A stretch of 64,000 nt of DNA, taken from Nemertoderma westbladi. Its lineage: Eukaryota > Animalia > Xenacoelomorpha. The DNA is taken from positions 1-64,000 of the forward strand of contig JAUCBJ010006975.1 of assembly GCA_032718475.1 (NCBI GenBank), given 5' to 3'. Made by a program: the position numbers and the translations under genes. The first letter of the stretch is position 1, and each line of letters begins with the position of its first letter. Under the pieces are notes generated by a model, which saw nothing but the letters and a program-made list of their open reading frames with translations, was not told the origin of the DNA and ran no database searches. Positions 35,753 to 64,000 of the stretch are shown here, in pieces.

Positions 35753-35904
35753 ATCTGCTTATAATATATTTATATATATATACGGCTGTACGGTATATAC
35801 CGCTTGTATTTCTGTATTTTATTAAACGCTTTTTACAATTTTTTTCATTAACATTTTTTCTACTGACTGTCTGACCATGGTTTCCCTTCCCTCAATTAGT
35901 TAGT

Positions 35905-41028: not shown

Positions 41029-41568
41029 ATTACTGATTAACCCACATAAATCTACTTAGCAACATTATTACAATTACTATTATTATTAACGTTACCGTAT
41101 ATATTAACATATTGCATTAATATTCATCTTGTTATTTTAGTGCAATTTAGAAATACTATTGAGATTATATTGACAATTATTATTATTATATTTCATTTAT
41201 ATTTTATACTATACATGTTCTTTTAGCTAAGGTTAGATGCTTACATTCATATGACAAATGACACAACTCAAATGTCCATCCTGTTTCGTTGATATGTTTG
41301 TAAACTAAATCAATAAACGAAACAGAATGGACATTTGAGTTGTGTCATTTGTCATATGTAAGCATCTAACCTTAGCTAAAAGAACATGTATAAAATATAA
41401 ATGAAATATAATAATAATAATTGTCAATATAATCTCAATAGCATTTCTAAATTGCACTAAACTAACAAGATGAATATTAATGCATTATGTTAATATATAC
41501 GGTAACGTTAATAATAATAATAATTGTAATAATGTTGCTAAGTAGATTTATGTGGGTTAATCAGTAAT
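41029..41568. repeat. Long palindrome with ~260-bp arms and a ~25-nt spacer
   Basis: 41029-41290 is the near-perfect reverse complement of 41316-41568. Confidence 0.92.
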
Positions 41569-42159
41569 TTAAACAGTTAATCAGTTAAAAATATATAATT
41601 ACAATGAGTAGGTCATCAACATCCTCACACTCAAGGTATGGGTACAATACCCTACCTTCACAAACTGAAAATGTGTAAACCTGGCATAGTAGGACAATAT
41701 AACTTTGATAAGATAAACACATTTAGTACTGACTGTATATAGATTGGTCTCAACAAAAAAATATAATACCAGTTTAAAGATAATGTGAGCTAATAATATA
41801 TGTCCTGTATATGTAAAATGTGTAAAGTAACTGAACAATAACATATCTGCCAAATAATTAAATTCCAAATGAAACAAAGAATACTCTCATTTACAGACAA
41901 ATAATTTCTCCAATTAAACTTACAACCAAAACCAACAACAAAATATAAACGTCAATTCCATATCAATTGAAAGTATAAAACAATTCTGATTGTATAAGGT
42001 AAAATAAGCATTACATACCATCTAGTTAGAAAAAATGTTTCACTCAGTTGATAAGTTAAAATGCATCATCTTTGACAGAGTTGATTTCCACTGATAGACT
42101 TTGTGAACATCATTGTATCCCTGAAAGATCAGAGGTGATGGACATAATCATGCCACCAA

Positions 42160-43018: not shown

Positions 43019-43549
43019 TCATTGAGCTTGCTCAAGTAGGCACAGCTTATGTATAGGGCGTTTGAGTACTGAACCTCCTCTCAACTTTATCACGGACTAA
43101 CTTGTCCTCCCCAGGGAAGACACGAGTAATCCGTCCAACTATCCATGCACCTTTGATAGAGTTCTCATCCATGACAAGAACCATATCGTTAACCTTAAGA
43201 TTGTATCCTGGGCGGTATCACTTTGTTCTTGTATGAAGGGTGGGTAGGTACTCCCTGATAAATCTCTTCCAAAAGAAATTACTTAGGACTTGAGATTGTC
43301 TCCAGGTACGTTCAATTCCATCGTTAGCTGTAATAAATAGACCTGGTGGTAGATTGGAAACAGGGTCAAGACATAGGGCATGATTTGAGGTAATTTCACC
43401 TCTAACATCATCAGTTGTTGAGTAGAGTGGACGACTGTTTAATATAGCCTGAGCTTCAGACAAGACTGTTCGCAATGTATCATCGTTAACTAACTCTTTT
43501 TCCAATGTCAATTTAATTATGTTTTTGGTTAGACCTACGAGACGTTCCC
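43019..43549 (-). pseudogene. BEL/Pao integrase C-terminal fragment with an in-frame stop
   Basis: Reads (W)ERLVGLTK..LRTVLSEAQAILNSRPL..FWKRFIREYLPTL..TK*..LKVNDMVLV..WIVGRITRVFPGED..KRPIHKLCLLE. It is cut off at 43549 by a TGT terminus. Confidence 0.85.
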
Positions 43550-44735
43550 TGTAAAGGCTTTTGCGTAATTAGCTGGTTATTTTCCCCGTAAAGTACTCTG
43601 TAGTTGGTTTAACAGGCATAAAAGGCCGTGTCCTTACTGTATTGTTGTTTTAGAGGACATAAAAGCCATTTCTTCTGTATGTGTACTTTAGAGGACATGA
43701 TTAGCAATTCTATGACGCAATACGCCGGATCCTCTTGAAACAGTGTAACTACCATGATGACGGCTAACAGCTGATATTGCCACGTGGAACATCTCTTTGT
43801 TCTTTGTTCTCTCTTTGTTCGGTCGACCAATCAGAGCGTTTTTTGCCTCTGTGTTGGAGATTGTATATAGAAACTAGTGAAGTGAGTCAGTATGTGATTT
43901 TGTCCACAGCCTACAACACCGGCGTGGAACCTCCGTGTTTCAGTCTTTAGTTCAACATTAGTAGGCTTAATTATAGAACGTATATCCGTTATCTGATCAT
44001 AACTCACTGAACTATCCATAACTTAACTAATCATACCATAACACAACTTACTTAACTCAATCCGTGTTTCGTACTGCTATTTACTGTCGGTTATTCATTA
44101 TATTTGTTGATGGAATATTATATTCGGAATACTGATAAACAATCAGACACCCCAATCTTCTTGATATACTAAAGGTTAGAGAGACCGGATACATATAACG
44201 ATTGCGACTTACATTAAGTGGTTTGAAGTGAATCTAATGCTATTTTATAGGCCCTACACGTATTGTCTGTTGTTTTCCTTATATGTGACTAAAATTAGTG
44301 AAGGTCGGCAGATTAGTGTGCAGCATTGTGCAGTATTGTGTATGATTGTGATTGATAACGAAGCATCTCCTAAAGAATGCGCCATATACGTGAATCTATA
44401 GCCATCCCGTTGTGTATAGTTTAAGTCATAACTCTGTTTATATATTTAAAGCGCCACGTCCTAAAGGAACTGTTAATATTTCCCGAAAGTGAATAATATT
44501 TGTCAGAGATTATATATATTACGATCAGTCGAATAATACAGTAGGCCTACCCCGCAATACGGTTAGGCTTCCGAATCCAGTCTCCCGGGTATATCCAGCG
44601 GGTGAATGATCGCGCATAGACTGGATTCGGCTAATGTAGTGTATCAAATACTTGTTATAGGCTAAAGACTATTTATCATCTAAAAGACACCCAAATTTGG
44701 CAGGTTAAACTGCTAAAGGTCTGAAAGCGCGAACA
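43550..44735 (+). mobile_element. Putative LTR (TGTAAAG...GAACA) upstream of the BEL gag ORF
   Basis: Begins with TGT exactly where the integrase fragment stops, and similarity to 17148-17937 ends exactly at ACA. No matching 3' LTR or tRNA PBS was found. Confidence 0.55.
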
Positions 44736-44886: not shown

Positions 44887-45159
44887 TGCTTCTGTATTGC
44901 AGTAGGCAATAAAGCTGAAGTACCGGCCAACCGGTACCCAGTAGGCCTGACTACCTAACCACCCGGACTGGTACCTACAGCAGTACAGGTACAGCAGTAT
45001 TATTCGATTTTGATTATTATATACCAGTAGGTCTTAATAATTAATTGGGGATGCCTGGTTTTTATTGGGATTTTACTTAGGCCTATTTCTGTCAAGTTTT
45101 ATTTATTTGTAGGCCAATATTGAGCAGAAGGCGTGTAAGCCTGCTCAGATTGTACAGAC

Positions 45160-45735
45160 AATTTGTAGGCTAGACTGTTGTCTAACTGTTGTTAAGTCTG
45201 AACGGATTGCAGTGTGTGTAGAGCATCTGTCCGATAAAGTGCTAGTTAGGAACGTAGGGGCTTCAAGTGCTGTGAGGTAAACCCCTTTGAAAGAATAAGT
45301 CGTACTACTAGGTTAGAACGCATACTAACTAATCATTTCGGAGTCTGCATATACTGTAGTTTATTTAGGCTTGATAGTAGTCTGCCAGCGTTTGGTCTGT
45401 ACTTTGTTTGTGTAGTCTATGCGGGTAGCGTATAATTCTTATTTAGATAATTTGTAGGCTGGATAGTTGTCTGGCTGTTGTTAGGTCTTGAGAGATTTCG
45501 GTGTGTGTAGAGTGTATGTCCGATAAAGTGCCAGTTGGGAACGTAGGGGCTTCCAGAGCTGTGAGGTAAACCCCCTCGAAAGAATAAGTCGTACTACTGG
45601 GTTAGAACGCATACTAACTAACCATTTCGGAGTCTGCATATACCGTAGTTTGTTTGGGCTTGATAGTAGTCTGTCAGTGTTTGGTCTGCATTTTGTTTGA
45701 GTAGTCTGTACGCGTAGCGTAATATTTATTATTCA
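45160..45735. repeat. ~289-bp diverged tandem duplication in the BEL leader
   Basis: 45160-45448 vs 45449-45735 (gtccgataaagtgc, aacgtaggggcttc, aagaataagtcgtactact, catttcggagtctgcatata). Confidence 0.88.
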
Positions 45736-47058
45736 GAGTTTATGCGATTATTCGCAACATTCATATCCCCAAGTTTATTCCTACAGTAATTGTGCTTGTT
45801 ATACATACCGTTATAGTTAAACTAACCCCGGTACTACATCAGGGCTGCTTGGCGTAGGTAAAGACTGGAGATTTTGTGCTTTGGTCACTCCGGCAGATAC
45901 CGTGGTTCTTTTAGCTGTTCAAGTATTTTAACTACTAATTATTTGTTGTATAAGTACTTGTACCTAATTTAGGGTTTAGTGTACAGTGCTTTCCGAAGGC
46001 AATTAGTGTGTAGGCAGTATATTTGTGTTGTAAAGTGGTTAATAGGCACGTTGGTTCTGGTAGACCGCGGTAATTAACTTCTAGGTAGGAACACTCCGTG
46101 ATACATAACGTAGTACTTATAGCGATACGGCTATAAGTCGTCAGACGGTGGTATTTTTCTATCTGGACAACGCAGTATATTTACTACTACTTATTATTTT
46201 CAAATACCATAGTACTCTGTCCGTTGTAATAACCAGATTTCTAACCCTTTGTTAGGCTGGTTTGTAGACTTCTTGTAAAATTACCCTAAAAATTCGTACT
46301 TGTAAATTTTTGTGTTTATTTAGAGATTGTAATCTCAACCCGAATTGTACGTAATTTGTAGTATTAAGTAACTTAGGTAAATTAGAATTATTTGTTTTAG
46401 TGTCCAACAAGTAGCACTTCACTGAGAGCGCACAGCTTCTGTGTAGTGACTCCCCCAGAAATAATAACATTTATTTCAAATATTGACAAAAACCCATAAA
46501 CGGGTATATATATATTATAAATCAACTCAAACGATTTATAAATAGTAGGCCTGCCATACAACAACTAGGTCTCAATATCCGTTGGACTACTGCTCAAATA
46601 ACGGTAATAAAGTAAGTTAAAGTAACCAAGTAACCCCTAAAACTCAGAAATTCAATTATTCTAAAATAATTGACATACCGGTATTTACAATAGGCTTATT
46701 ATATTTATATATATAAATTTAGGCTGAAATTATACCGGTATTCTGTAATTAATTCTAGTTCATAATTATACTTATATACACTATAAGTGTAAGCTGTATA
46801 CCGGTATTCACGATAGGCCTATTATATATTTATATATATTTGTGCTGGAATTACATACCGGTATCCTGTGACAAACCTAGTCTGTAATAATACTTATATA
46901 TATACTATAAGCATACCGGTATTCTAATATATTATACATATATCACGCTACACTAAGTAGCAGTATCGGTAATTAATTACTAGGCTAACAGTGATACTGA
47001 ATTACTAGACTTGCTTAAACTGTAATATAGCAGTAGGCATTCAACTGTACAAACCAAC

Positions 47059-50000
47059 ATGTCTGACACAAAGCAAAATCTGTCAGACAGTCTCTTAGAT
47101 ACAACCATGTGTGACCTAGACAGGAGTGTGGAACGTGTTAGACCGAAGTTCAACTTACCTCCTACTGTAAGAAAGATCATTCCCCCAGTAGTAATATCAG
47201 AACCTAGGCTGGTCCAACACCGTAGGTCTATCATAGGCACTCGAGCTCAGGTCAAGCGGGACCAAGAAACAGCGGAACCGCAACAACCCGCGAGCCAAGA
47301 ACTTATTTCTCAACGGCCCGACAGCAACAGTAGTGAGGATACTGCAGAGCTGACACCCGAGCGCGGAGCAAAGATGACAGATGCGGTTTATTCGGACCCC
47401 CTTCTCATACTTCCTGCAGCCGTACTCACTAGGTTATTGATTGCGGTAGAACAACACCAGATCGATTGGGCGAGAAATAAGCGATCGACTAAAGATAGTT
47501 ATGCGGGATACACAAGGGAAGAACTGAAGTCTATTGTCGAGTCGCAATGGAACTTCCCCGGACCCGGACTCCCGTTTGATTTATCAGAAGCTGCCTGGGA
47601 AGATATACACAGGATGGGAGTAACCAAGGAAACCAGCGATCCAGCTGTGTGGAAGAGGTCAGCAGCCGGATACGCACAGGGATTCTTCAGCTCCATGGAG
47701 CGATTAAAAGAACAACTGTTTCAACAACCCCAAGGACCTCAAGAGCAGGGACAGCTGCTTTATCAAGTTAGAGAAAGAATTCTACGAATCAGGCTAATCT
47801 TATCGGCCTTTGAGGAGGCTTCTAAAAGAAGACAAGACACGTCGTTGCAAGTTGCCGTAAAGACTTGGTTTCAACGGGTGAGTCTCCAGGTTCAAGGAAC
47901 GGCTCAGTGGAAAGCTCAGCTGGAGGAGCGCTCAACCCATGGAGAATCAACAGACGCTACTTTTTCCCAAGTGGAAAGTGAAGCGACGGCAGAGAAACCG
48001 CATAAGAGGGATGCCATTGACATCTATCTGTCAGACTATCAACGTTTTTTAGGTGATGAAGAGTTGAGGAGAAGGCTGGATGGACTTAGCCCTATTAGTG
48101 AAGGAACCCAGCGTGTGTTGGACGCCATCGATGTGGATATGAGAGCTGCGAACCAAGCTAAATTTGATGAACAACTCCGCATCGCTAGAGTCCAAGAAGA
48201 ACAAGTAAAGAAAAAACGTATAGAAGATAGAAAGGCAGCGGCAGTGGCAGCAGCAGTGGCAGCTGTAGAAGCAGAAAGAAAAGTGGCAGCGGCCGAGGCG
48301 GAAAGAAAGGCGGCAGCGGCAGAAGCGGAAAGAAAAGCGGCAGAGGCAGTGGCAGAAGCAGAACGGAGAGCGGCTGAAGAAACCACCCAATTAGAATTGG
48401 AAAACATTCAGGAGAATCAAGACTGCATAAATAAACAGTTAACAGCTAGTAATATGCAGATGATGAATCGATCTACTCCCAAAAGACAGGGATATACATC
48501 ATCTGAGGAAGGCGATACCACCGATACTGAAGGCAAAGGAAATAGGTCTCGTCTAAGCAGACGTAGAAGAACATCCCACCGTCAGAAATTGCCTGATTTG
48601 CCTCCAGCTGTTAGAAGGCAACTAAATAACACAAACTTAGGTAGTACAGAACCCACAGACCCAATAATTAAAATAGAAAGACTCCCTACTATAGTAGATG
48701 AGCCTGAAATAATTAGACCTGTTCCCGAAGCCACCCTTTCGGTGGTAGAGACACCTGTACTCCCTGAACCTACCTCTAAATTCCCTCTGCACAGCACTAA
48801 GCTATCTGTGCCACACAGAACCACCCTTGAAAATGTTCATGTCCTGGACTCCGAGCGAAATATTAATGATTTGTCGCCCGTTGTCCCTCGTCGGCCCGCT
48901 ACAACGTTGGCGGCTCCCGCTTCGGCAGTCGAGTGGGTGGATGAGGGACGACGGGGGATGGATCTCCTGCTCGGGCAGATGCAGGAGACTGTTCAGCAAT
49001 TCAAGGGCACAGTAAGGGAAAGTAGGTTAGAGTTGCAAGAAGTGCAGCAAAGTATCGCTCTAGAACGCGATAAATTAGTAAATTTACAAAAGGGTATATC
49101 ACCACCCTCTGTAACAATATGTCAACCCGTTAGGTCTGAAGTATCTCATGCGCAAGGTGTGGAGCCTACACGCATCTATACTGCTAGCGAAGTAGAAACT
49201 CCTATAGTAAACCCTATTAAGGGTAATTATAGACCTGTTGATAGTGATATTCCCTATAGACCTGATCATAATCCGAGAAATTTATATACCGATAACTCGA
49301 TATTAAATAACACGATGGCCCAAGAAAGTTTTACGCGTCAAATGGCTAGAACCGAAGCCCGCCAAGCGGTAAAGGTGGGAGAGATAGTCAAGTTCAATGG
49401 AGATGAGATGAAATGGTTACCTTTTAATGAATATTACAAAGATAACATACAGAACTCTGTGCTATCTAATGGAGAGAAACTTAGATTCCTCATCGAGTGC
49501 TTGGAAGGATCTCCCAAGTTAATGGCGTTAAAGTTTATTGGACATCCAGACGGATTAAGACAAGTTTGGGATACACTAAACATCAGGTATGGTAATAGGA
49601 ATAACATAGCTGGGTATTTGTATGCAAAGTTGGTAGCGCCCCGAAAGTTTATTAGCAGCGGGATTATAGAGTTTTCCGATGAGATTCAGGAGATCTGCAG
49701 ACAATTAGATTGGCTAGGTAAGTCTCATGAGTATCAGAGTGCTATGGTTATTAGAGCAGTGGCTTCTACTTTACCGAAGGGTGGAGTAGGTACACGCTGG
49801 GACAAGAAAGTGTTATATATGATGGAACAACAACAACGAGACCCTACCATGGCTGATCTCATGTCATTCTTAGATGGAGAAGTGAAATTACAGCTCCTAA
49901 GGCAGTCCAGAGAGAAGACACCGGAAAACAAGGTAACTGAGAAACCCGTTTCTAGGAGAAGGGTAATACCAGTGTGTTATACAGACGACGGCGAAAGCCA

Positions 50001-51654
50001 GGCTTCTCAAGAGGAAGACAGCGGGAAAGACACTGAAAGATCTTACTATGACAACAAAGCGACTAAGGACGTAAGTAAATTCAAGTCTCGAACCAATGAC
50101 AGGAGAGAACAGGTAAGAAAAACTCCCCCTACGTCTCCTAAGAGAATTCAAGTAAGAAAGCCCGAAGAAAGAACGAGTGTGCACAACGTTACTCAAAGTA
50201 AGGTAAGTAACATCAAACCAAAATGTGTGCTGTGCGACGGGCCCCACCGTTTGAATATGTGTGATAAATTCCTAAAGAAATCATTAAAGGATAGACGTGA
50301 AGTCATGTGGGATAAGCGGTTGTGTTATAATTGCCTCAGACGAGGACACCAACGGCGAACCTGTTACTCCGACGCAAGGTGTGCAAAGTGCGGCGCAAAA
50401 CATCATATCTTGTTGCACACGGAATTCGAACGAAACAGCCCGAGTCAGGTAAGTGAGTCCGAACTACATGTCCAATTCAGTGATGTGAACGACACTGACC
50501 AATATTCTGAGATGGAAGGATTCTATACGGACGAATTCTCCGACGAAAACGAATCCTGTTACCTGACAAATACCGCAGTGTATCGAGCACTTACGTATGA
50601 CAAGGACACCGACAGCGAGCTCCCCCTAACTACTTCTGACAGACAACCATCTTGGAAAGCACCAACTTCCAATGTAGGAATCCGAGAATTTCCTGTAGTA
50701 CAGTTAAGGGTCCACGGATCTACAAGGAGTTATATAGTGAACGCCCTCCTTGACTCCGGTAGCACAGGAACATTCATCGACAAAGAACTAGCCGAAGACA
50801 TCTTTGCTGGACAACCCAAGTTCCGAACTAAGCTAAACATGTCAGGAATTATGCAGGTTTGGAAATCTACCGTAATAGCGGATTATTATGTAGGCGCGTT
50901 TTCCACCCCCCAGGATGAACTAGGAGAACACAGCATAAGGTCAGTAAAAATGGTAGCGATAAAGAACTTCGCGACCAGCCAAGTGGAACCTTATAACTGG
51001 GATGAGGACGATTTCACCCAGCAGCTTGAAATACCTAGATTCAACACCGATTACCCTGGAGTCCAAATACTCATCGGTCAAAATGCGCATGAAGCGCTCG
51101 AGACATTGGAGAAACGGCCTGCTCAACCGCAACCACTACAAGTCTATGCGGGAAGAACTAGAGTAGGTTGGTACTTTACTGGCCCTTCTTGTAGAACTCT
51201 TATGGAAAGATTACCAAAAGAACAGGTATATCAATTAAGTGAACGGGAAGTGGAGAGCAGTGAAGTTGACGACCCAACTGAGGGAACACCATACTCCTCA
51301 GATAATGACGACATCAACTCCAATGTAGAGCAATGGAGACATTGCCCCGAGACGATCAATCTAGCCGACATCGCTTCCAGGGGAGCAACTCCACAAGAAC
51401 TGATAGATACTCCAGCGTGGTTAGGTGGACCCGACTTCCTAAGTAAAGAAGATGAATGGCCTCCTCATCTTACCCCGGCTAAGATTAGACAGGCCAAGGG
51501 AGCGGAGAAAGTAACACAACCACTCAATCGCCCAGCTGGTCGTTTATGTTTACTGGAAAGAGACCGAAAACTGTCCGGAAACTATGGAAGGCAAGATACT
51601 CTTCCCACGACCACCTCCCTAATCCAACAAATATCTAGGGACTCCATAACGTAA
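47059..51654 (+). CDS. BEL/Pao Gag-protease polyprotein of a non-autonomous derivative (RT and most of RNase H/integrase deleted in frame)
   Basis: Capsid-like KFNGDEMKW..LSNGEKLRFLIECLEG..LNIRYG (DUF1759-like); BEL triple knuckle CVLCDGPH..C / CYNCLRRGH..C / CAKCGAKHH.LLH; protease ALLDSGS..ILIG; then QWRHCP..NLADIASRG..WLGGPDFL and RPAGRLCLLE. Confidence 0.88.
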   Translation: MSDTKQNLSDSLLDTTMCDLDRSVERVRPKFNLPPTVRKIIPPVVISEPRLVQHRRSIIGTRAQVKRDQETAEPQQPASQELISQRPDSNSSEDTAELTPERGAKMTDAVYSDPLLILPAAVLTRLLIAVEQHQIDWARNKRSTKDSYAGYTREELKSIVESQWNFPGPGLPFDLSEAAWEDIHRMGVTKETSDPAVWKRSAAGYAQGFFSSMERLKEQLFQQPQGPQEQGQLLYQVRERILRIRLILSAFEEASKRRQDTSLQVAVKTWFQRVSLQVQGTAQWKAQLEERSTHGESTDATFSQVESEATAEKPHKRDAIDIYLSDYQRFLGDEELRRRLDGLSPISEGTQRVLDAIDVDMRAANQAKFDEQLRIARVQEEQVKKKRIEDRKAAAVAAAVAAVEAERKVAAAEAERKAAAAEAERKAAEAVAEAERRAAEETTQLELENIQENQDCINKQLTASNMQMMNRSTPKRQGYTSSEEGDTTDTEGKGNRSRLSRRRRTSHRQKLPDLPPAVRRQLNNTNLGSTEPTDPIIKIERLPTIVDEPEIIRPVPEATLSVVETPVLPEPTSKFPLHSTKLSVPHRTTLENVHVLDSERNINDLSPVVPRRPATTLAAPASAVEWVDEGRRGMDLLLGQMQETVQQFKGTVRESRLELQEVQQSIALERDKLVNLQKGISPPSVTICQPVRSEVSHAQGVEPTRIYTASEVETPIVNPIKGNYRPVDSDIPYRPDHNPRNLYTDNSILNNTMAQESFTRQMARTEARQAVKVGEIVKFNGDEMKWLPFNEYYKDNIQNSVLSNGEKLRFLIECLEGSPKLMALKFIGHPDGLRQVWDTLNIRYGNRNNIAGYLYAKLVAPRKFISSGIIEFSDEIQEICRQLDWLGKSHEYQSAMVIRAVASTLPKGGVGTRWDKKVLYMMEQQQRDPTMADLMSFLDGEVKLQLLRQSREKTPENKVTEKPVSRRRVIPVCYTDDGESQASQEEDSGKDTERSYYDNKATKDVSKFKSRTNDRREQVRKTPPTSPKRIQVRKPEERTSVHNVTQSKVSNIKPKCVLCDGPHRLNMCDKFLKKSLKDRREVMWDKRLCYNCLRRGHQRRTCYSDARCAKCGAKHHILLHTEFERNSPSQVSESELHVQFSDVNDTDQYSEMEGFYTDEFSDENESCYLTNTAVYRALTYDKDTDSELPLTTSDRQPSWKAPTSNVGIREFPVVQLRVHGSTRSYIVNALLDSGSTGTFIDKELAEDIFAGQPKFRTKLNMSGIMQVWKSTVIADYYVGAFSTPQDELGEHSIRSVKMVAIKNFATSQVEPYNWDEDDFTQQLEIPRFNTDYPGVQILIGQNAHEALETLEKRPAQPQPLQVYAGRTRVGWYFTGPSCRTLMERLPKEQVYQLSEREVESSEVDDPTEGTPYSSDNDDINSNVEQWRHCPETINLADIASRGATPQELIDTPAWLGGPDFLSKEDEWPPHLTPAKIRQAKGAEKVTQPLNRPAGRLCLLERDRKLSGNYGRQDTLPTTTSLIQQISRDSIT

Positions 51655-54600
51655 CAACATACGGAGTGGGTGTGTGACTATATTATTTTATATTTATTCT
51701 TATTATTTTATATTTATGTATGTATTATTATGTATTTTTATTATAATCGTTTTCTTTAATTTTATTTAGTAGAATGTTATTTTAGCGATTATTTAGTAGA
51801 TTAGTGCAATATATATTCGCGTTTATTACTTAATTACTTATATATTATATATTTAGTGCGACGGCGAGAAATAATTCTTTTTCTCTTTCCTTACGTCCGT
51901 ATTACATTACAAATACGTAATTACAGTAAGATGAAATGTCCGTACTTATTAAAGTACAATAAAGCTCCTACTATATTTAAGTATTATTGGTAAGCAGAGT
52001 ATTAGGAATGCAAAATTCAGATCCTCGTGTCTCGGCTAAACCAAGCTCTAGGTAGACTTGGAAACGACTTGCCTCTTCTCACTGACATTGCTTCGTGCGA
52101 TATTGCTCTCATACCGTATATTAAATAATACATATAGTAGCGTGATGTCCTTTTAACAGTAGCGTATAACGCAAAATAAATCTGTTAAACCCTTTGACCA
52201 TCTGTAATTCTAGTCGATTAAGATATCGCGGCACCCACCGATATACTTGAAAGACAAAATTCTAGAATCAGTGGTTAATGTCCCCAGACAAGTTCTGGAA
52301 TAAACTGGTGCCCATCCTAAATATTAATTATTAATATTTACAAAACCTGTCAAATTTTAGATCCTTTAAAATTCTAGTCGAATAAGGTATCTGATAAACA
52401 ACCGCGACACCTATACTAACAGCAGAACTGTTGAACAGACAAATACCCGTTAATATCCTTCTGCCAACCTAATGAGCTCTCGCCTAACCAATAAGACACA
52501 AAGACTGCTCTACTGTTAAGTAAAGGGGATCAGGAGCGTGATATTACTAAATTGTAAAGGTTGCTAAATACAAAACCGCTACTTACCGTTGGATGGCGCT
52601 AATCTGCCGTCCGCTAATATATTTTACTAATTTTACACAACTCCTGCAAAATCGCTTGTTCCTTTCTCTACCGATTGCTCGACAGAGAGCTAACTGTTCG
52701 AATCTATGAACCACGCGGGAATAACCAAAACAATAAACCCGAGTCGGCTCCCTAAGCTTACTTAAGACGAGTGCGAGATGCTTTGCACTCAGAGTATTCT
52801 TACGCCTAATTCTATCACTATTAAAGCACGCTATTGCCTACGTCTTTTCTAATCGCGAATACTGGGGGTTCCCTAACGTATGTGTGAATGCGAGAATATT
52901 TAAATAATCAAAATGGTACAGTGTTTGTCTCTACGTGGATAGTACCGCTCTGGGTCTAAAATTGCCTGCAGCTGGCTTTAGGCCAGCAAATTACTAGCGT
53001 GTTGTGTGTACCGAATAGTGCGATCTAGCTGATTGCCCGCTAATGCAAATAACCGCTCAGCGTGAATAGTTTACAGTACTCTAATTATTACTTTAGCTAC
53101 TCTCCGCTATGCTGCGTACTAATTCTTAATTTTTACTAATCAATTACAGTCACAAATATGTAACAGCGTACTAATTACTAAGAGTTCCAGAATACGTAAT
53201 TCTAATTTATTACGCAACAGGTTTCGCTAGTAATAGCCTAAATTGCCGTATTACTTTGACCTAATCAGTAACTAATTGTTGTAACTAAGAAATAGAAATC
53301 AATCAAAGAAAAGGGGGCGCCTACCTAAACATTCACAATCGTAGGCACACTTCAATAACACACCAATCAGCGTCAGCAATCACAGTTCGCAATTATGCAG
53401 TTAACTACTGTATAGCCCACAGTTATGCGACTCACTATTCGTACTTCACACTCCACGTTGTGATACGTGCAGGCCTCTCCCGGGTACATATAGGACTCCT
53501 AACTAACCTGATTCCTGCCCCCCTAATACTAAATAGAGACGAAACCTGGATCATCAGCCCCCTAATTACTGTACCAGCGAATGGTCTGCATACCACAGCG
53601 TGAACTACCCGACCGCAACGGTGACCCCCCGCCAGCGTTGCTCGCTTTTGAATCCTCCGCTCTCCCTTCGTCGCTAACCCCCCGATGTGCCCACCGCCCA
53701 CTGGCACCTTAGCCCTCCATTATGCTAATAGCTACCGTAGCGGCGCATGCAAATCACAAAGTCTGACAGTCTCAGAAATCCCTTAGGATTATTGCGTAGA
53801 AAGGAATCACATAGAACAAGGGTGTGGACTGTGAGGTATAGAACTAGATAGAGCTCTATCGGCAAACCGCCAATTTATAGGTGATCCGGATGGGGTGATG
53901 CAATAGGGTGACTCAATCGCTCTCCTATTGGCTCTCCAGTCCGCGCTAGCATTAGACCAAGCTGGAAGCAGTTAGTCCAATAAGGAGGCCGGATTGTAGC
54001 CCTATCGCTGCCCAAACCTCGAATTATTACCATATATGGTAATGGATCATGTCCCTGGCTGCTGAATGGCCAGGACAGCGTCCCTATGCTAGCCCTATTG
54101 ATGCTAATATCAGCAAGCACAAAATCCAGGGTCCGACTAAACTTGCTACCCTGGAACTATCTACATATATCCTAATACAAAATTACGTAGGTAGGGCTAC
54201 ATATTATACAAAATGGATGGATTCAAATATATGGGCGTTTTGGTTTCCCTATCTAAATATCACCTCGCTATTATATCTTATCTAAAATATTATGCTGCAC
54301 AACGGACTAATATTACGTACAGTATAACGGACTAATATTGCATACAGTATAACGGACTAATATTGCATACTGCATAATGACTAATATATGTGGATACAGC
54401 GCCATATACCGTAACACCGCTCCAAGGGAAATCATACAATGTTTCCCTCCAATTGTAGAAGAGTATAAGGTGATGTATACAAAACAAAATAAATTTCTTC
54501 CAACTAATCTAAATACTTGATACTATAAATCCTACTATTTACAAAATATTGCTATGGATATTGCATAATGAATTGCATACAAATTAAATTTACAAATATT

Positions 54601-54891
54601 ATCTCTCTCATTCAAATTAAATTTACAAAATATTGTTTCTCGTTCGTACTACATAATGATTACTACATACAAGATCAAATATATAAAAAAATTTGCTAGG
54701 GCAAGTGAAAGGAGTAAGCCAAACCCGCAGGTTTGTCTCCCCAATCACTTCCTTCGCCTCTCTCATAATATAAATTCAAAACAGCTCAACTAGTGTATAT
54801 GAGTCTAGTCGAAGATTTCTAAATGCTACAATATACATCAGAGCGACGATGATGTATATATCTAGAGTCTGTCGCCCTGTGCTATAATGTA

Positions 54892-57800
54892 TTATCGACC
54901 CGCTCCTGGGTTCTTTGGGCTCGCTCCTCTCTTTCGCCCCCTGCCCAGATACACCAGTCGTCCTCCAGTCGACTCCGTTGACGGCGTCCGTGAGGCGTCA
55001 CTCCCCGGAACCGGCGACGATGTTCCCTGAGCCCCGACAGATTCCCGGCTCGTGCTTCTTCCTCGGCCTCGTCCCAATTGTCGGGCTCCTGTGGTCGCTT
55101 CCGCCAACTCTTCCTTATGCAGTTGCACTCGCGCCTTCTCCGACGCTCCCTGCGCCTTGCGCTGCAACCTCTGTGCTTCTATAATAGAGTGATAGTGGTC
55201 GTCCTTGACTTGACGCTTGTCTTGGACCCCTCCTCCTGGTTCCTTCCGCGAGCCTTGAGCTCCAGCGGTCGTCGCTGTGGTCGCTGCGATCCTCTGTTCC
55301 CGTATCCTCTCAGCGGTCAATGAACCCACTGGCACATGAGTCAACAAGAATTCGTTGCGGTATTGTATAGCCGCCATCCTCCAATCACCTCGCGCGCGTA
55401 CCACTTTTCTAGTCTCCGTAAATACACCCTTCGTGATGCGATCGCAAATAGCAACAAAGTTCCAGGTGTACTTATTGTCCATATTCAACTGTCTGAAGTA
55501 TTCTCGGACTACGATAACTCCAGTGTTCTGTGGAAGGTCTTGAGCAGTTAGGATGAGTTCCTGATATTGTGGTAGCGATTGTAGATATGGCTCGTACGCA
55601 ACATGTGATGGGTCTACCGCCCAAAATCCATATCCCGCCTTAAATGGTAACCAATGCATCTGCGCTTGAATATGGTAATCAGCCACACTCTCCCACTTAT
55701 CTAACATCTCCCGAAGTAGGTTAGCGCTATGGTTTTGAAAGGAATCATCTCGCAGCTGACATCTCGCGCTACGATGTCCCTTTACCCCACAATATCCACA
55801 TTGAGAAATGAAGACGGTGCACGTGTGAAACGAATGGTCGGTCTCATTACACCAACGACAGACCTTATGCGCCGCCTCTACTACCGCGTCGCACGACTTT
55901 AGATTGTGCCTTGTGCTGCCGCACAATTTGCACCTACGCGCTTGTGGAAACCAGGCCCTCTCATATATGAGGTCTCCAATCGGTTTCGCACTTCCTTCCT
56001 TCCCAATGTCTAATACGATGTCGTCCTCTCCGGTCAACGGTTGTCGATCCGGAACAAAGTAAACATCCTCGCCCTTGTCCTCTATCTCCAATATTTCCTC
56101 CCGCGTTCGTTTCGGATATGTCTTCTCCACCAGAAGATCTACTCCGAACACCTCTACTAACGTCTCCGGCCAGCCCTCCTTAACAGGTCTATCAGCCTCC
56201 GAGTGGAAGGGAGTACCAAACCCGCGGGTTTGATTCCCGAACCACTTCTCCAAACCTTCTGGCGTCGGATACTCCATCGACGGTCGGTCTCCCAAATCTC
56301 CGATGTTCTGTCGATATACTCCTTGGAATATCGCTAATCCTCTCCTTACCATCGACGTATTCTCTAACGACTGGTTGAAGAACGGGGTTAAGAAACGCTT
56401 CATCACGTCGGATTGGATTCCCCCTTTCGAGCGAACGTATTGATCTCCTCCGAATACTAATGGATGACGCTTCAAAACTCGCGCAACGATATCCGCTAAT
56501 AAACAAGTCACCGTGTTCGACTCAAGCACCAAGTAATATTGTAGCGACGCACGGGGTGGCGCGCAAATGTTCCAATACACTAATGCTTGCCGCTTGAAGT
56601 GGGATTTGAACTCCGCTCCCGGTGGCGTGTTGTATTCGCCATACGCCTCCTCGTACTTCTTCTGCGTCTTTAACTTAAAGTCCCAATTATACAACAAGTG
56701 TGCTATAAAGCCCATACCAGTCTTGGCAGAGTTGGGATACTCCCTATAAATTCCAATGTCCTGTGCCCATAGCAACAATAGCTTGGTGTCGACAAACGGT
56801 CTCGGCAATCTATCTTCCAGATCAGTCATGGCGTTGAAGTCGCTCTCCAAATCGCTCTGGACTCCCGATCCCACCTTGACGTAATCTTGGTTGAGAATAG
56901 CCTCTCTAACTTTCTTGGGTAGCATCCTGGCGTCGATACGCTCCGCTCCGTGCATACCTCCTCGCCTGCATACCTCCAAAATCTGCTCCCTAGGATCCTT
57001 CCCTTTCTGATATTGTGTCGTTATGATGGGCTCTGGTCTCTCTCGATCCGCCCTCACACGCATAAACACATGAGTCACACCATCGGCTGCACGAATTTGA
57101 ATACACTTGCTGGTCAAACATTCCTGATGGGACCCTCCTTCATTGTCGTAGAACATCACCCTCCAATCCTGCAGTGATTCCTCCATTTTCCTCCACTGAC
57201 GCTGAATCTCGTCTGATGGGGTCCACATGCGCTCGATAGCCTTGTGGTCATCATATCGGGTATAAGAACCCTTCCTCCTCAGCCACGTCTGGTCTACCTC
57301 CTCGTCGTCTGGGAATGTAGCCACCGCGACCCATACCTTGATGTACTTATCCAACCATCCGAATAGTTTGCTCTCCTTCCCCGGAGCTCCAATCTTATCC
57401 AATGTGTCGTAATCTGTGATCTGCATTGGGACATCACGCAAGAACTTCGCGCATAAAACTTCCCGTAGACAGTCAACGTTCCAATGATCCGCCATTCTTA
57501 CCATCGGCAAGAATCGTATCGCTTCTCGCGATTCTGGATGATCTACTAATATCGCAGGTTCGGTGCCGTCGGAATAATACACCGGTCGGGGTTGAGATAC
57601 GACCTGTGGAACAAATCCGGTCACTCTCCTCGTCTCCTCTTGATGTCTATCCGCAGTCTTATTATACTCCGCTATCCTGTTCTCAAATAACTCTTTCGCC
57701 TTCGCCGCTCGCTCCTCCTGCCGCAACGCGTCTATGTCGTCCTGATGCTCAGGCGTGAGGCTTCTCGCTCGGTGAGGTGAAGTAAACGCAGTCCAGGGAC

Positions 57801-57937
57801 TCGAGAGCTCCAAACCCGCGGGTTTGGTACCCGAGTCCCGTGCCGCTTCGCGCCGCGCCTCTAGATCCTTATAGGCTCGGTACAGCGAAATGGCCGCTGC
57901 CGTCTCTATCAAACTGGGTGTCGAACAGGGTTTAATC
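54892..57937 (-). CDS. C-terminal part of a Copia-interrupted ~1195-aa protein: DEDDy-like 3'-5' exonuclease plus three CCHC zinc knuckles
   Basis: Exo I FYDNEG..CIQI, Exo II KVGSGVQSD..FVDT, Exo III W...QYYLVLE. Knuckles CKLCGSTRHNLKSC, CRWCNETDHSFHTC and CGYCGVKGHRSARC. Open and intronless for more than 1000 codons. Confidence 0.75.
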
Positions 57938-58112
57938 TGTGAGTACTGCAGTATTATGCTTGTGTTAGTTTGTGCCTACTGTATTGTTGTGAGTTAGTTA
58001 GGTTGGTGACTGGTGAATATGTATTGCATTGTGCACGTGCTGATAGCAGTAAAGTTTAGTTATTAAAATACAGCAATAAGTTTAATGTTTAAAATGAGTT
58101 CTAATTCTAACA
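57938..58112 (+). repeat. Copia 5' LTR
   Basis: TGTGAGTACTG...TTCTAACA followed by the PBS. Confidence 0.95.
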
Positions 58113-61100
58113 TTGGTAGCAGAGCGTCGGCTGATTCTTTGAAAGTTCCACCGGTATTAGATACAGCAAATTATAGCACATGGAAGAAAGAGGTTGCTTT
58201 GTGGAAGACTGTAACGTCATTGAAACAGAATCAATTGGGTTCAGCACTAGTTTTATCGCTTACGGGAAAAGCGAAAGTTGCAGCAATGGAGATCGAGCAA
58301 GATATATTAACATCAGTTACTGGTTTTCAAGAAGTTCTCGAACTGTTGGACAAGTTGTATTTAAAAAGTGAGGATGAAAGGGCGTTCGAAGCCTACGAGA
58401 ATTTTGAGAGCTATTTGCGTAAACCGAATGATAAACTGGATGACTATTTGATTCAGTTTGACAATCTGTATGCGAAAGTTCGAGGACATAACATGCACTT
58501 GCCACAGGGTGTTCTGGCGTATCGCCTTTTGAAGGGTTGTAATCTCGAGAAACCAATGGAACAACTCGTGAGGGCTACGGTAAATAGGTTCACCTACGAT
58601 GCGATGCGTGAAACTTTAAAGCGTTTGGCGAATCAACGAACAAAAACGCCGGTGGAAGTTGGTGACTCTATTATTAAACTCGAAGAAGTTAATGAAGCGG
58701 TTGGTGGCGATGAACACTCGGATATGTCGGAAGTTTTTTATGGGCAATCGGGATATCGTCGAGGAGGATTTAGCCAGCAGTACGGTGGTGGTGGGTCCGG
58801 ATATTTTCGCGGAGCACTTGGGGGAATTCCACGTAATAGATTTGGCCGTCCAACTGGTCAGTTTAATACCAACAGTCAGATGCGTGGTGGGGGAGTAGCT
58901 GGTTCATTTCGGCAGTGGAATGTTCCTGGACGGCAGTTTGGTGGTAGTAATAACACAACTTCGTCAACAAATCGTCTTTCAGGGAATGGAAACTTTGATC
59001 CTGGTTGTTTTGTGTGCGGTTCAAGGTTTCATTTAAGGAGAGATTGTCCAGAAGTTACACGGGTTTATAATACAGAGGTAGATGATGGTGAGTACGAGCA
59101 CGAGGAGGTTCACATTACTTTGTTTACTGGGGAGGAGAAAGAAGATTTTGTAGCTGAGGAATTGGGATTTGCGATATTGGATTCTGGTTGCAGTCGTACT
59201 GTGTGTGGTACAACTTGGTACAGCTGCTACTTGGATAGTCTAACATCTGAGCAGAGAGAACGCATTGTTGAAAAGGATTCTTCAGTACGATTTCGATTTG
59301 GTTCTGGAGAATCAGTAGCTTCGATAAAAAATGTAAAAATTCCAGCATGTATTGCAAATGAAAATATATTCATTTCTACAGAAGTCGTGAATTGTGATAT
59401 TCCTTTGTTATTAAGCAAACAGTCAATGCAAAAGGCTCGCACACATATGAATTTTGAAAAGGGAACAATCACCATGTTGGGTAAAGAAATCACTCCAGTT
59501 CGGAATAGAGCAGGGCATTTTTGTATACATATTGCACCTAATTGTTCTTCAAATGTGGCATATTTTCTCGAACAAATATCAAATGTGAATTCTGATGTTA
59601 AACATATTGCATTGAAGCTGCATAGACAGTTTGCACATGCAGACACAAAACGTATTATCACTTTACTCAAGCGTGCTGAGTGTTGGAGTTCGGAATTAGA
59701 ACAAGCCTTACATTGTGTGAGAGATAATTGTGAAGTTTGTAAGCGAATCCGTAGAGCACCACCTCGTCCAGTTGTTTGTCAACCATTAGCAACAACATTC
59801 AATGAAGGATTAGCTATTGATCTAAAATTTATAAATGGTCATCCTATTTTACATATGGTGGATTTAGCAACACGTTACCGTGCAGCTGCGGTTTTATCAA
59901 ATAAAAAGCCTGAATCTGTTATTCAAGGGATGTTTACTGGATGGATTTCAAATTTTGGTGTTCCAAATAAAGTCTTGGCTGACAACGGTGGAGAATTTTA
60001 TAATGACGAATTTGTTAGTATGGCTGATAACTGTAATATTGAGATATTACCAACTGCGGCAGAATCCCCTTTCAGTAATGGAGTCTGTGAACGTCAGAAT
60101 GCAGTATTGGGTGATGATGTACTTAAAATAATGCAAGATTGTCATGTAAATCTCAATATTGCTGTTGCTTGGGCTGTTGCTGCACGAAACAGTTTGACTA
60201 ATGTGCATGGTTTCTCACCGAGCCAGGTTGCTATAGGACTCAATCCAAAAATTCCAATTTTAGAGAATAGTTCTCTAGCTGCTTTGGAGGGTAAGACAAC
60301 GAGTGAGGTAGTGGCAGACAACCTAAATGCGATGCATGTGGCCCGTAGACAATTTATTGCAAATGAGTCTAGTAGTAGATTGCGCCGTGCACTTAAGCAT
60401 AATGTTAGAGCGGTCGAGTTTCAGTGTGAAAATGGGGATCGTGTATTTTACAAGCGAGAAGGTCACAAAGAATGGAAGGGACCTGGAGTTGTGATAGGTT
60501 CTGAGGGTCAAAGTGTTTATGTGAGACATGGAGGGTTTATAGTTCGAGTACATAAAACTCGAATTTGCTTAGTCAATAATTCAAATGAACGATTGACAAA
60601 TGATGTACATGACAGTGTTGTTAAAAATAATGGCGATGGAAGCATTGTCAGAAACTCTAATAATGGTGATGTTGTGCGAAGATCTGTTGATGATAGTGAT
60701 GATGATGACAATGATATCGGCAATGCCAATGATCATAATGACATGACGTTGCCTACTAATAATAGTTCAAATGAAACCGAAAGTGGAAAACAACCATGGG
60801 TGTCTATTGTTGCAAATAGTAATGTTAAAGCTGGGCAACGTATTAAATACACCGATTCTGATAATGTTATTTGTGGAAGAATATTAAGTCGAGCTGGTAA
60901 GGCAAGTGGTAAATATAGGAACTGTTGGAATATTGAATTGCCTAGTGGTAAATCTTGGGTGAATCTAGATGAAGTTTCGGATTATGAAATTGTTCCTGAT
61001 GATGAAGAGGTAATGATTACGGTAACTTCAGGATTGAAAGATGCTAAAGAAAAGGAGTTAAGTACATGGAAGGAACAAGGTGTTGTGAAAGTTGTTCCAT

Positions 61101-62521
61101 ATTCTGGTCAGTCTCTTGTGTCTACACGCTGGGTCATTACAGAGAAAGTTGTTAATGGCAATGATGTTGTCAAAGCCCGCCTTGTAGTTCGGGGATTTGA
61201 AGAACAGTTTGGTGGTCGAACAGATTCGCCTACATGTAATAAAGATAATATTCGTCTCGTGTTGTTTCTGATTTCATCATACGGTTGGACAATAAATAGT
61301 CTCGACATTAAGTGTGCTTTCTTACAGGGTTTCACCATCGATCGTGAAATATTCGTGAAGCCACCACCAGAGGCTATGGTAGATGGAGTTTGGCAGTTAA
61401 TGAAGACTGTGTATGGTCTAAATGATGCCCCACGAGCATGGTATATGAAACTTCGGGGGACCTTAACGAATTTAGGATTGACTGCTTGTCCCGAGGATCC
61501 AGCTTTGTTTTATTATAAGAAAGATGGAGAAATTCAGGGGTTGTTATGCATTCATGTTGATGATATCCTGTGGGGAGGTAACTCATACTTCAAGAACAAT
61601 ATTGTTGCGAAAATATGTAGTATATTTGAAATTCGTTCAACAGCAGCACTGGCTTTTAAATATCTTGGTATTGATGTAAAACAAACCGATCATGAAATTG
61701 AAATTAGTCAATTTCGATACGCTCAGCTTCTAACAGAACTTCCAATCTCGCAATATGCTGAAGTTGATAGACCATTAACATCCAATGAAATCTCTGATTA
61801 TCGAACACGAGTAGGAGCTATATCATGGCTTGCCAATCAAAGTCGCCCTGATTTAAGTTTTGATGCTTCTTATCTAAGTTCACAGGCAAAGCATCCTATA
61901 GTTGGTGATGCTAAGTACCTCAATAAGGTAATTCGTAAAGCCAAACAATCATTAGCTGCTGGTCTGCAATTTGATACTACCTATTTTAAACCTTCAAGTG
62001 CAGCATTAGCAGTATTTACAGATGCTTCACTTGGTAATGCAGTTGGTTTCTCTTCTCAAGGTGGATATATGATCTTTTTAGCTACAGTAAACAATGGTCA
62101 AGAAACAAGCAACTGTTCCACCCAATCATCATATCCATTTGGAGAGGTTCAGTTGAATGGTTTATTGACATGGAAATCTGCTAAAGTTCGACGGGTTGTT
62201 AAATCTACATTAGCTGCAGAAACCTTGGCATGTGTAGACGGTGTTGAGGAGGCAATTTTCTTATCGAAAATTATTGAAAACATTATTGATGTTTCTATAC
62301 CGATAATTTGTTACACCGACAACAAATCATTACATACCGCAATTCAAACCACTAATGTACTCCGTGATAAGCGTTTAATGATCGAAATGGGAATACTAAG
62401 AGAACTATTCGAACTTGGTCGCGTGTCATTTAAATTGGTTGCAGGAACTAACCAATTGGCTGATTGTTTAACAAAGAAGGATGTGAGAAAGAAGTTCGAG
62501 ATCAAAGAAAACTATATGTAA
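58085..62521 (+). CDS. Copia Gag-Pol (Gag-CCHC, protease, integrase, RT, RNase H), 1478 aa
   Basis: CFVCGSRFHLRRDC; ILDSGC; HRQFAH..CEVC, DNGGEF, SNGVCER; KARLVVRGF, LDIKCAFLQG, VYGLNDAPRAW, HVDD; TDAS, AAE, TDNKS, QLADCLTK. Integrase precedes RT, which is the Copia order. Confidence 0.96.
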   Translation: MFKMSSNSNIGSRASADSLKVPPVLDTANYSTWKKEVALWKTVTSLKQNQLGSALVLSLTGKAKVAAMEIEQDILTSVTGFQEVLELLDKLYLKSEDERAFEAYENFESYLRKPNDKLDDYLIQFDNLYAKVRGHNMHLPQGVLAYRLLKGCNLEKPMEQLVRATVNRFTYDAMRETLKRLANQRTKTPVEVGDSIIKLEEVNEAVGGDEHSDMSEVFYGQSGYRRGGFSQQYGGGGSGYFRGALGGIPRNRFGRPTGQFNTNSQMRGGGVAGSFRQWNVPGRQFGGSNNTTSSTNRLSGNGNFDPGCFVCGSRFHLRRDCPEVTRVYNTEVDDGEYEHEEVHITLFTGEEKEDFVAEELGFAILDSGCSRTVCGTTWYSCYLDSLTSEQRERIVEKDSSVRFRFGSGESVASIKNVKIPACIANENIFISTEVVNCDIPLLLSKQSMQKARTHMNFEKGTITMLGKEITPVRNRAGHFCIHIAPNCSSNVAYFLEQISNVNSDVKHIALKLHRQFAHADTKRIITLLKRAECWSSELEQALHCVRDNCEVCKRIRRAPPRPVVCQPLATTFNEGLAIDLKFINGHPILHMVDLATRYRAAAVLSNKKPESVIQGMFTGWISNFGVPNKVLADNGGEFYNDEFVSMADNCNIEILPTAAESPFSNGVCERQNAVLGDDVLKIMQDCHVNLNIAVAWAVAARNSLTNVHGFSPSQVAIGLNPKIPILENSSLAALEGKTTSEVVADNLNAMHVARRQFIANESSSRLRRALKHNVRAVEFQCENGDRVFYKREGHKEWKGPGVVIGSEGQSVYVRHGGFIVRVHKTRICLVNNSNERLTNDVHDSVVKNNGDGSIVRNSNNGDVVRRSVDDSDDDDNDIGNANDHNDMTLPTNNSSNETESGKQPWVSIVANSNVKAGQRIKYTDSDNVICGRILSRAGKASGKYRNCWNIELPSGKSWVNLDEVSDYEIVPDDEEVMITVTSGLKDAKEKELSTWKEQGVVKVVPYSGQSLVSTRWVITEKVVNGNDVVKARLVVRGFEEQFGGRTDSPTCNKDNIRLVLFLISSYGWTINSLDIKCAFLQGFTIDREIFVKPPPEAMVDGVWQLMKTVYGLNDAPRAWYMKLRGTLTNLGLTACPEDPALFYYKKDGEIQGLLCIHVDDILWGGNSYFKNNIVAKICSIFEIRSTAALAFKYLGIDVKQTDHEIEISQFRYAQLLTELPISQYAEVDRPLTSNEISDYRTRVGAISWLANQSRPDLSFDASYLSSQAKHPIVGDAKYLNKVIRKAKQSLAAGLQFDTTYFKPSSAALAVFTDASLGNAVGFSSQGGYMIFLATVNNGQETSNCSTQSSYPFGEVQLNGLLTWKSAKVRRVVKSTLAAETLACVDGVEEAIFLSKIIENIIDVSIPIICYTDNKSLHTAIQTTNVLRDKRLMIEMGILRELFELGRVSFKLVAGTNQLADCLTKKDVRKKFEIKENYM

Positions 62522-62601
62522 CAATAACTGATTTTATACAAACTATGATTTAATGCAACAATTATTACAACAAACTTTAATTTAAAAAAATGAGGGGAGA
62601 T

Positions 62602-62776
62602 TGTGAGTACTGCAGTATTATGCTTGTGTTAGTTTGTGCCTACTGTATTGTTGTGAGTTAGTTAGGTTGGTGACTGGTGAATATGTATTGCATTGTGCAC
62701 GTGCTGATAGCAGTAAAGTTTAGTTATTAAAATACAGCAATAAGTTTAATGTTTAAAATGAGTTCTAATTCTAACA
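62602..62776 (+). repeat. Copia 3' LTR
   Basis: Same sequence as the 5' LTR, preceded by the PPT and followed by TAATC. Confidence 0.95.
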
Positions 62777-62781
62777 TAATC

Positions 62782-63323
62782 TCCGTATACGGATCTAATG
62801 TCGTAACGGTCGGCGTAATAGGTCTCGGAGGTCGCTTTCCGCTGAAGTCGATACTGATCATCGGGTTGCTCATCGGGTAACCTCCCTCGTTGTATCTAAG
62901 GAACTGGTGAGCTGGACATCGCGTTAATATCGGTTCTGGATGTTGCTCGTCTAGTCGGTCGGGAATCGCTACGTCTTGCTTATTCATGCATTCACCACAC
63001 TTGTAGAAGAGCTTGTACACGCTGAAGACTTTCGGCGTCTCCTGATCCTCGCCTCGAGTTCTCCGGTACAGATGCATTCCGTCGAACTGATCTCGGATTG
63101 CAGGTAGAGGTACTTCGTGTCGTAAATACATATTCATATGGTACAGTCGTGCGATCTCCTCATCCGGGTCTGCACTAATGTCACATACGTCCAAAGCGAA
63201 GTCGTAGGGATACCGCGTGCGATACTCTCTCCGCAAAACTTCCACCCGGTCCCCCAACGCTCTCATTCTTTCTCTCCGTAATTCTTTATCATAACTTGGC
63301 TTGTACTTTCCGTTCAGCTCCAT
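62782..63323 (-). CDS. N-terminal part of the exonuclease/zinc-knuckle protein
   Basis: Reads MELNGKY...LDPYTE. After removing the Copia and one TSD the frame continues IKPCSTPSLIETAAA into the 54892-57912 ORF. Confidence 0.75.
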
Positions 63324-63362
63324 CACGGACCGCCCATGGTAGTAAACGTTAGAGTCTTTACA

Positions 63363-64000
63363 TCCCGGACACCAATCCGTCGTCCATGTAGAAGTTTCTC
63401 AAGATGGACTCGATGACCTCTACTGGGTACTTACCAATCTGGGCTGTTGCCGTTTTCTTTAGAACAAACAGCGTGCCATTTGGACTATCGCGGGCGCCAA
63501 ATATCCTAACGTACATCTGGTATGTAACCACTGGGCCGGATAAGTCTTCATTCTCATACCAGAGAAAGCGAAGGCTATCCTGGTCTGCCTTACAGGCTCT
63601 TACCTGGTGGAACATCGCCTCGATGTCACAAGTAAATGTGAATCGCCGCTGTCTAAAACGCAACAGTATTCCAATCAAATAATTGTTCAGGTTGGGACCA
63701 TCCATCAACTCTGAATTCAGGGACATACCTCTATAGACTGCTGCGCAGTCGTTGACTACTCGGACCTTGTCTGGCTTGTCAGGGTGAGTCACATAGTGGT
63801 GTGGAAGGTAATAAGTCTGGTCTGTCACTAAGTCAGGGTCCTCTACCTTCCCAGCAAATCCCTTAGCGAAATAGTTGTTGATCTGGGCGCAATACTTCTC
63901 CCTAATGCCTGGATTCTTCAACAACCGAGCCCTTACTCCGTTCAATCTTTTCAAGGCTAAGTTATAGTTGTTCTCCAACTTAGGTGGTTGTCGACGCCAC
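63363..64000 (-). mobile_element. BEL/Pao reverse transcriptase fragment, cut just after the catalytic motif
   Basis: YYLPHH, KVRVVNDCAA, SLNSELMDGP, LLRFR, DIEAMFHQV, LRFLW, FGARDSP, NFYMDDGLVSG, then an abrupt end. Confidence 0.9.

Follow-up and report, generated by a model that had tools for sequence, protein, structure and literature searches.

A probable mobile-element gene joining an exonuclease-like domain to three zinc knuckles, next to a BEL/Pao reverse transcriptase in Nemertoderma westbladi

We analysed a window of 64,000 nucleotides from the xenacoelomorph Nemertoderma westbladi (GenBank assembly GCA_032718475.1, contig JAUCBJ010006975.1, positions 1 to 64,000), near the end of which a long open reading frame (ORF) on the minus strand encodes an exonuclease-like domain of DEDDy type together with three zinc knuckles, and directly abuts a reverse transcriptase (RT) of BEL/Pao type. 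A Copia insertion splits this ORF into a 5' part (62777-63368) and a high-copy 3' part (54892-57937), the latter holding the exonuclease-like domain, a linker, the knuckles, a tail and the stop codon. The two parts share one register (542 + 3046 = 3588 nt), and from the first ATG, at 63323, the rejoined ORF comprises 1195 codons plus the stop, the register being judged from lengths only. The inserted element is a low-copy, GalEa-type Copia on the plus strand (57938-62776), with rve and RVT_2 domains in an ORF at 58067-62521 and a coding region that forms one frame of 1484 codons. Its long terminal repeats (LTRs; 57938-58112 and 62602-62776) are 175 bp each, begin and end with TG..CA and are 100% identical; a primer-binding site lies at 58114-58125, a polypurine tract at about 62589-62600, and the target-site duplication TAATC at 57933-57937 and 62777-62781. 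The element appears to be young and intact, and its primer site is the one found in GalEa elements (available excerpts of PMC3587641). Copia-free contigs span the insertion site in three of the four sequencing runs, namely X1 (n = 4), X3 (n = 4, joint depth 10,689) and X4 (n = 1), and not in X6. LTRs, duplication, register and Copia-free contigs all agree with the split and the in-frame rejoining to 3588 nt proposed in an initial annotation of this DNA, which had been made from the sequence alone.

That annotation described a 1195-residue gene starting at the ATG at 63323; the length counted from this codon stands, and the ATG is not confirmed as the natural start. Since the frame stays open for the 45 nt between the ATG and the junction with the RT (63367-63368), and in all four runs ORF-side contigs depart from the window at this point, translation may naturally begin further upstream, and 1195 amino acids are not necessarily the full length. 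The further description of the gene as intronless and free of stops holds for the window ORF, in which we see no intron, and for the 3' part, which runs over 1013 codons without any stop; since the host has very long exons, the missing introns are in themselves weak evidence.

The minus-strand product begins with a CxxC-x23-CxxH pair (62907-62999), a possible zinc ribbon, followed by the likely catalytically dead DEDDy-type (WRN/EXD2-like) domain (56476-57177). Three exact CX2CX4HX4C zinc knuckles (55759-55932; starts at 55932, 55860 and 55800) form a cassette with a downstream aromatic GF motif that characterizes the family described below (55537-55962; domain E 6.6e-17), and a low-complexity tail completes the protein (54895-55284). 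The N-terminal pair and the knuckles are as the initial annotation had them; its basic, RG-rich tail does carry four RG in the final 130 amino acids, and is only mildly basic (18% R+K). A derivation of the knuckles from the neighboring BEL gag was considered and set aside, the similarity (28% over 64 residues, E 4e-4) being taken as generic, and the sole match in a single-sequence search of the PDB, rotavirus VP4 (E 0.009), was taken as chance. Just ahead of the Exo I strand there is also an H-x2-C-x4-C motif with a later H (57072-57129, minus strand), not present in the relatives; speculatively, it may form a metal site comparable to the Cys-His-Cys of ORF3 in the rotifer element Vesta.

Six distant relatives were found by a full phmmer scan among 1.84 billion proteins (E 9e-8 to 1e-4); they are 514-715 amino acids long and each falls in a cluster of one or two. 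Neither phmmer nor word-based protein searches found a relative closer than about 30% identity, the latter giving no match for the window ORF part or for alignment A1, and for the relative P0001 only itself. Scans of viral contigs found no locus (5/5), and those of metagenome contigs none for the window protein and one for alignment A4. The knuckle cassette with its GF motif is present in 6/6 relatives and a clear exonuclease-like domain in 5/6, and the 5' part of the ORF, including the CxxC-x23-CxxH pair, has no counterpart in any of the six. In P0005 the exonuclease domain is degenerate and the knuckle-GF cassette doubled, which is a second, separate nuclease loss in the family. A profile built from the six relatives alone recovers the ORF among 1,095 window frames (E 5.9e-37), and the relatives' exonuclease profile matches the window domain with E 5.3e-19. 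Against solved structures, an exonuclease-only profile (six rows) ranks EXD2 first (E 5.7e-4), followed by WRN (0.13 and 0.2) and Nibbler (0.89); Roquin rows among the weak matches are likely chance. Clusters of the Atlas that carry DNA_pol_A_exo1 score 0.88 and 0.86, and serve as leads only. Structure predictions were of low confidence (predicted local distance difference test, pLDDT, 33.6 and 43.7); with these models Foldseek gave a best E of 0.038, its top rows carrying exonucleases (the top five being an apicoplast polymerase and a nuclease), and a VIA fold search on a low-confidence model gave a best Z of 4.1, with Nibbler at Z 3.6 (root-mean-square deviation 5.2, 109 residues aligned). 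The assignment to the WRN/EXD2/EXD1/Nibbler type in the initial annotation is in keeping with the EXD2-like profile; the low-confidence models yield no clear fold match, and the Exo I motif on which it drew fails. Judged by sequence, the protein family is unnamed and has no Pfam model.

For the active site, we compared the window protein with its relatives motif by motif. Exo II (KVGSGVQSD, 56851-56877) keeps its aspartate at 56853, invariant in 6/6 rows of alignment A6. Exo III (56521-56538, within W..YYLVLE starting at 56574) has Y-x3-E at 56535-56521 rather than the canonical Y-x3-D; the last residue is likewise E in two of the five relatives in A6 (P0001 and P0003) and D in P0002, P0004 and P0006. 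Both motifs, the final D-to-E change included, had been correctly read in the initial annotation, and its choice of FYDNEG as Exo I is wrong: FYDNEG lies 91 residues ahead of the VGS of Exo II, as against 60-62 in 4/4 relatives measured, and aligns with the relatives' first strand and with the strand preceding Exo I in EXD2. The best-fitting place for Exo I is at 57052-57060, 62 residues ahead of Exo II, and there the window has R-V-R where P0001-P0004 and exon 1 of L001, the DNA locus of P0006, have the canonical D-x-E and P0005 has the D only; a D-R-E follows four residues later. Over seven aligner settings the Exo I column received R in five, F in two and the D of FYDNEG in none. A compensated frameshift at this place was rejected, both other frames being closed by stops. 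Since both replaced codons are two bases from an acidic codon and close copies diverge from the window by just 2-4%, R-x-R is likely the state of this family rather than decay of the window copy. On this residue evidence the domain is quite probably catalytically dead, and of the two options named in the initial annotation, nuclease or pseudo-nuclease, the latter is the likelier, resting on R-x-R at the Exo I place.

Copy number was gauged from contig depth in runs X1, X3, X4 and X6. Summed depth, which overcounts copies, ranges over five bins (54511-57680) from 25,801 to 41,262 in X1 and from 21,631 to 35,399 in X3, and across the Copia from 93 to 208 and from 150 to 173, respectively. Single contigs tell the same story, with ORF contigs at about 40-50 times the Copia depth; the depth of one X3 contig within the ORF is 7,733, versus 150-187 for X3 Copia contigs. 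Diverged copies, with identity down to 85%, keep the frame, and 10 of the 11 ORF contig records among those listed are gap-free, the remaining one having 3 gap letters. By depth and by these diverged copies the ORF is a multi-copy repeat, its genomic dispersal being unmapped, and high copy number is not what a single-copy host orthologue of EXD1, EXD2, EXD3 or WRN would show. Of the 21 variants listed for the 5' part (62787-63365), 16 are synonymous, as against an expected share of 34% for transitions (P 9e-5). The ORF is a repeat of high copy number, under purifying selection in its 5' part.

The neighboring BEL/Pao RT (63367-63999, minus strand) extends off the window upstream and ends just past YMDD. 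Three of its motifs occur 35, 6 and 3 times in a published BEL/Pao domain file (PMC3118150, seen in part); a Pfam scan of the fragment gave no match. Of its listed variants, 14/16 are synonymous. RT and ORF lie on the same strand and abut directly at 63367-63368, where either position fits either side, and depth does not fall from one side to the other. In 4/4 runs, ORF-side contigs exit the window at 63368 (13, 3+3, 1 and 1 listed); RT-side contigs that continue past 63367 into other DNA number, among those listed, one in X6 and one low-depth piece in X2. High depth, mostly synonymous variants and the join to a BEL RT bear out the earlier idea of a multi-copy, transposon-borne gene.

We favor, with a probability of about one half, the reading that the ORF serves a BEL/Pao LTR-retrotransposon family as an accessory gene and that its product combines a likely dead WRN/EXD2-type domain with RNA-binding knuckles. 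That the ORF is borne by a mobile element of some kind we hold to be very probable, and that this element is a BEL we hold to be probable, with distinctly less assurance. In whole elements the ORF would lie behind pol, at the place of env. The window copy would be an internal deletion derivative without the RT end, RNase H and integrase, and since the RT ends at YMDD, contigs exit on the ORF side in all four runs and depth does not drop, this deletion would be common to many copies; the derivative may have spread via help in trans, with the Copia striking later. A more abundant repeat below the ORF (53877-54510), picked out by depth, is a candidate 3' LTR of the unit.

Several observations weigh against this reading. 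None of the contigs listed bridges the RT junction, and the commonness of the junction is judged from depth and from loose ends, 58 of them beyond those listed. No LTR pair, primer-binding site or integrase of the ORF unit was found in the 64-kb window, which ends at 64000, a 5' LTR of the unit falling beyond it; the order protease-RT-RNase H-integrase ahead of the ORF is incomplete, the window copy breaking after YMDD, and the scan for a polypurine tract gave one match against 0.62 by chance, leaving the candidate 3' LTR at chance level in this respect. Scans with Pfam, NCBIfam and PHROGs gave nothing useful for the ORF (no Pfam or NCBIfam match). At the active site, local profile alignments begin only past Exo I and leave its register unfixed, and when the D/E columns are included, ungapped scoring ranks FYDNEG (27) and D-R-E (12) above R-V-R (-1). 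The selection estimate comes from the 5' part of the ORF, outside the exonuclease domain, and some copies are deleted within that part, the joints in two contigs skipping 332 and 67 nt. The sole relative whose DNA was examined, L001 (2,486 bp), has a 91-nt GT-AG intron at 504-594, in the exonuclease domain, no pol within its 2,486 bp, and an upstream exon, overlooked by the database gene call, that carries the Exo I D-x-E; since it has D-x-E, an intron and no pol, not all members of the family are retroelement genes.

CCHC knuckles bind single-stranded nucleic acid. Tentatively, the knuckles of the favored BEL/Pao accessory protein could grip single-stranded RNA, while the arginine-filled former active site holds the 3' end without hydrolysis; the bound protein might then shield element RNA, or occupy small-RNA ends, against 3'-5' trimming by the host. 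Should the dead form indeed protect RNA ends against the host, this would be a rare instance in which an animal LTR retrotransposon counters silencing. A bolder version, which we think improbable, is that the family has active and dead branches and that the dead, BEL/Pao-borne branch is a decoy, binding the 3' ends of small RNAs or transcripts and blunting the host's trimming of Piwi-interacting RNAs (piRNAs) or small interfering RNAs (siRNAs). If true, this would mean that an animal LTR element has made an anti-silencing factor from a disarmed host-type enzyme.

The same BEL-borne gene might instead encode an active 3'-5' exonuclease that uses the D-R-E at 57040-57048 as a shifted Exo I, for a D-E-D-E set. 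Within the particle, such an enzyme would shorten element RNA, primers or complementary DNA from their 3' ends. The D-R-E lies 58 residues ahead of Exo II, near the family's 60-62, the aspartate of Exo II and the Y-x3-E of Exo III are kept, relatives with an intact Exo I also have E at the last position, and the Exo I half of the domain aligns without confidence. However, in 0/7 aligner settings did the D of D-R-E occupy the Exo I column, it sits 35 residues past the preceding strand as opposed to 27-29, and with the D/E columns left out the stretch that precedes it has the lowest score among the three registers (-32, versus +7 for R-V-R), and we consider an active enzyme unlikely.

Equally unlikely, in our judgment, is that the ORF came from a different mobile element (a DNA transposon or some other retroelement) and was recombined onto the BEL RT, the chimera then spreading or being confined to this nest. 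The region is indeed a nest of fragments, the junction cuts the RT, the ORF side runs into other DNA in 4/4 runs, the relative L001 has a spliceosomal intron, and DEDDy domains occur in Dada DNA transposons (PMC3706591, seen in part) and Terminons (PMC6431247, likewise). The common strand and the order, however, are those expected of an internal deletion, both sides of the junction have similar depth with few RT-side continuations, the window ORF has no intron, and partial LTR copies have been described to arise by microhomology deletions (available excerpts of PMC5408684). Less probable still is a processed copy of a host gene captured by a BEL element as a useless passenger: an intron-bearing relative is known (L001), and Euglenozoa have host proteins that combine nuclease and knuckle, but most differences between copies are synonymous, the frame is kept in diverged copies, and no relative above about 30% identity was found.

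Among known systems, the closest in concept are the DEDDy ORF3s in the LTR elements Juno and Vesta of bdelloid rotifers, shared with Athena/Terminon elements (available excerpts of PMC5408684 and PMC6431247). They too are extra DEDDy ORFs in LTR elements with variable last acidic residues (DEED in Juno/Vesta), and roles in RNA 3'-end processing or silencing have been proposed for them, so the remark in the initial annotation that it knew of no described example fails at the level of concept, the same roles having been published (PMC5408684). The rotifer proteins belong to rotifer lineages and have intact catalytic residues, and no knuckles are described for them in those excerpts. The window ORF, in contrast, has a BEL/Pao RT partner, three knuckles and the GF motif fused to the domain, an Exo I that is likely lost, and purifying selection; it is set apart from the Juno/Vesta ORF3s by this description. 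Dada DNA transposons also encode a DEDDy domain, but within a DDE transposase and with all four catalytic residues kept (PMC3706591, seen in part).

Host enzymes offer further comparisons. EXD2, WRN and Nibbler (PDB 6k17, 2e6l and 7jw2), which the family's exonuclease profile matches best among solved structures, share its layout (strand-helix-Exo I, LP..VGS..D, DT, W..L...Y), yet are single-copy host enzymes with a full catalytic set and without the triple knuckle. Euglenozoan proteins with DNA_pol_A_exo1 and zf-CCHC (the top Atlas cluster) likewise combine a DEDDy domain and a CCHC knuckle in one chain, but they are host enzymes of about 350-380 amino acids, and the match to PDB 7c42/7c45, which we take to be Trypanosoma RNase D, covers the knuckle only; they are likely a parallel design. 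EXD1 and Maelstrom, whose inactive DEDD domains retain RNA binding (available excerpts of PMC5408684), may serve as a model for a dead DEDD domain, although they are host silencing factors in piRNA pathways and the EXD1-like cluster scores only 0.77 with P0001.

The ICTV profile of Belpaoviridae names gag, pol and env only (PMC8742986), and the word "exonuclease" is absent from the main text of PMC3118150. No BEL exonuclease ORF was found in the literature searched, most subscription papers being outside our reach. A nematode Cer element of BEL type reportedly carries an extra 3'-5' exonuclease region (work by Malik, Henikoff and Eickbush from 2000); if so, an exonuclease ORF in a BEL element has already been published, though the Cer region is not known to have knuckles or a dead site. 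Relative to the rotifer ORF3s, the apparent novelty lies in the BEL partner, the fusion to a triple knuckle, the site that is likely dead yet conserved, and the unnamed family. The candidate would extend non-env accessory genes to BEL/Pao elements, with none in the literature searched, the reported nematode case aside. Naturally occurring members that have the Exo I acids, and others that lack them, also form a ready pair for asking why retroelements repeatedly capture DEDD domains, which the rotifer work left unanswered (available excerpts of PMC5408684).

The initial annotation had placed the gene between a BEL RT fragment and a BEL gag element. The RT is indeed joined to it on the same strand; the gag element is treated as a separate, more abundant repeat, membership of the ORF in one unit with this plus-strand element being rejected on its summed depth, about 10-45 times higher. 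The gag-protease ORF (47026-51654, plus strand; 1542 codons) has DUF1759 and a long N-terminal coiled-coil and jumps to a short pol-like end; no 5' LTR partner was found for it. The region 45001-52608 has the top summed depth of the stretch examined (0.45-1.2 million in X1), and the gag-protease element is likely a very successful non-autonomous family. The nest of BEL fragments also includes a broken C-terminal piece of a BEL integrase (DUF5641; 43050-43568, minus strand, that of the RT), and a 562-bp stretch at 41018-41579 is 92% its own reverse complement. Elsewhere in the window there is an RVT_1 fragment unrelated to the BEL RT (14704-15945, minus strand), a protein kinase C frame of 764 uninterrupted codons (29184-31478, minus strand; GC content at third codon positions 0.79) and a dynein heavy-chain frame of 2269 uninterrupted codons (6005-12814, plus strand).

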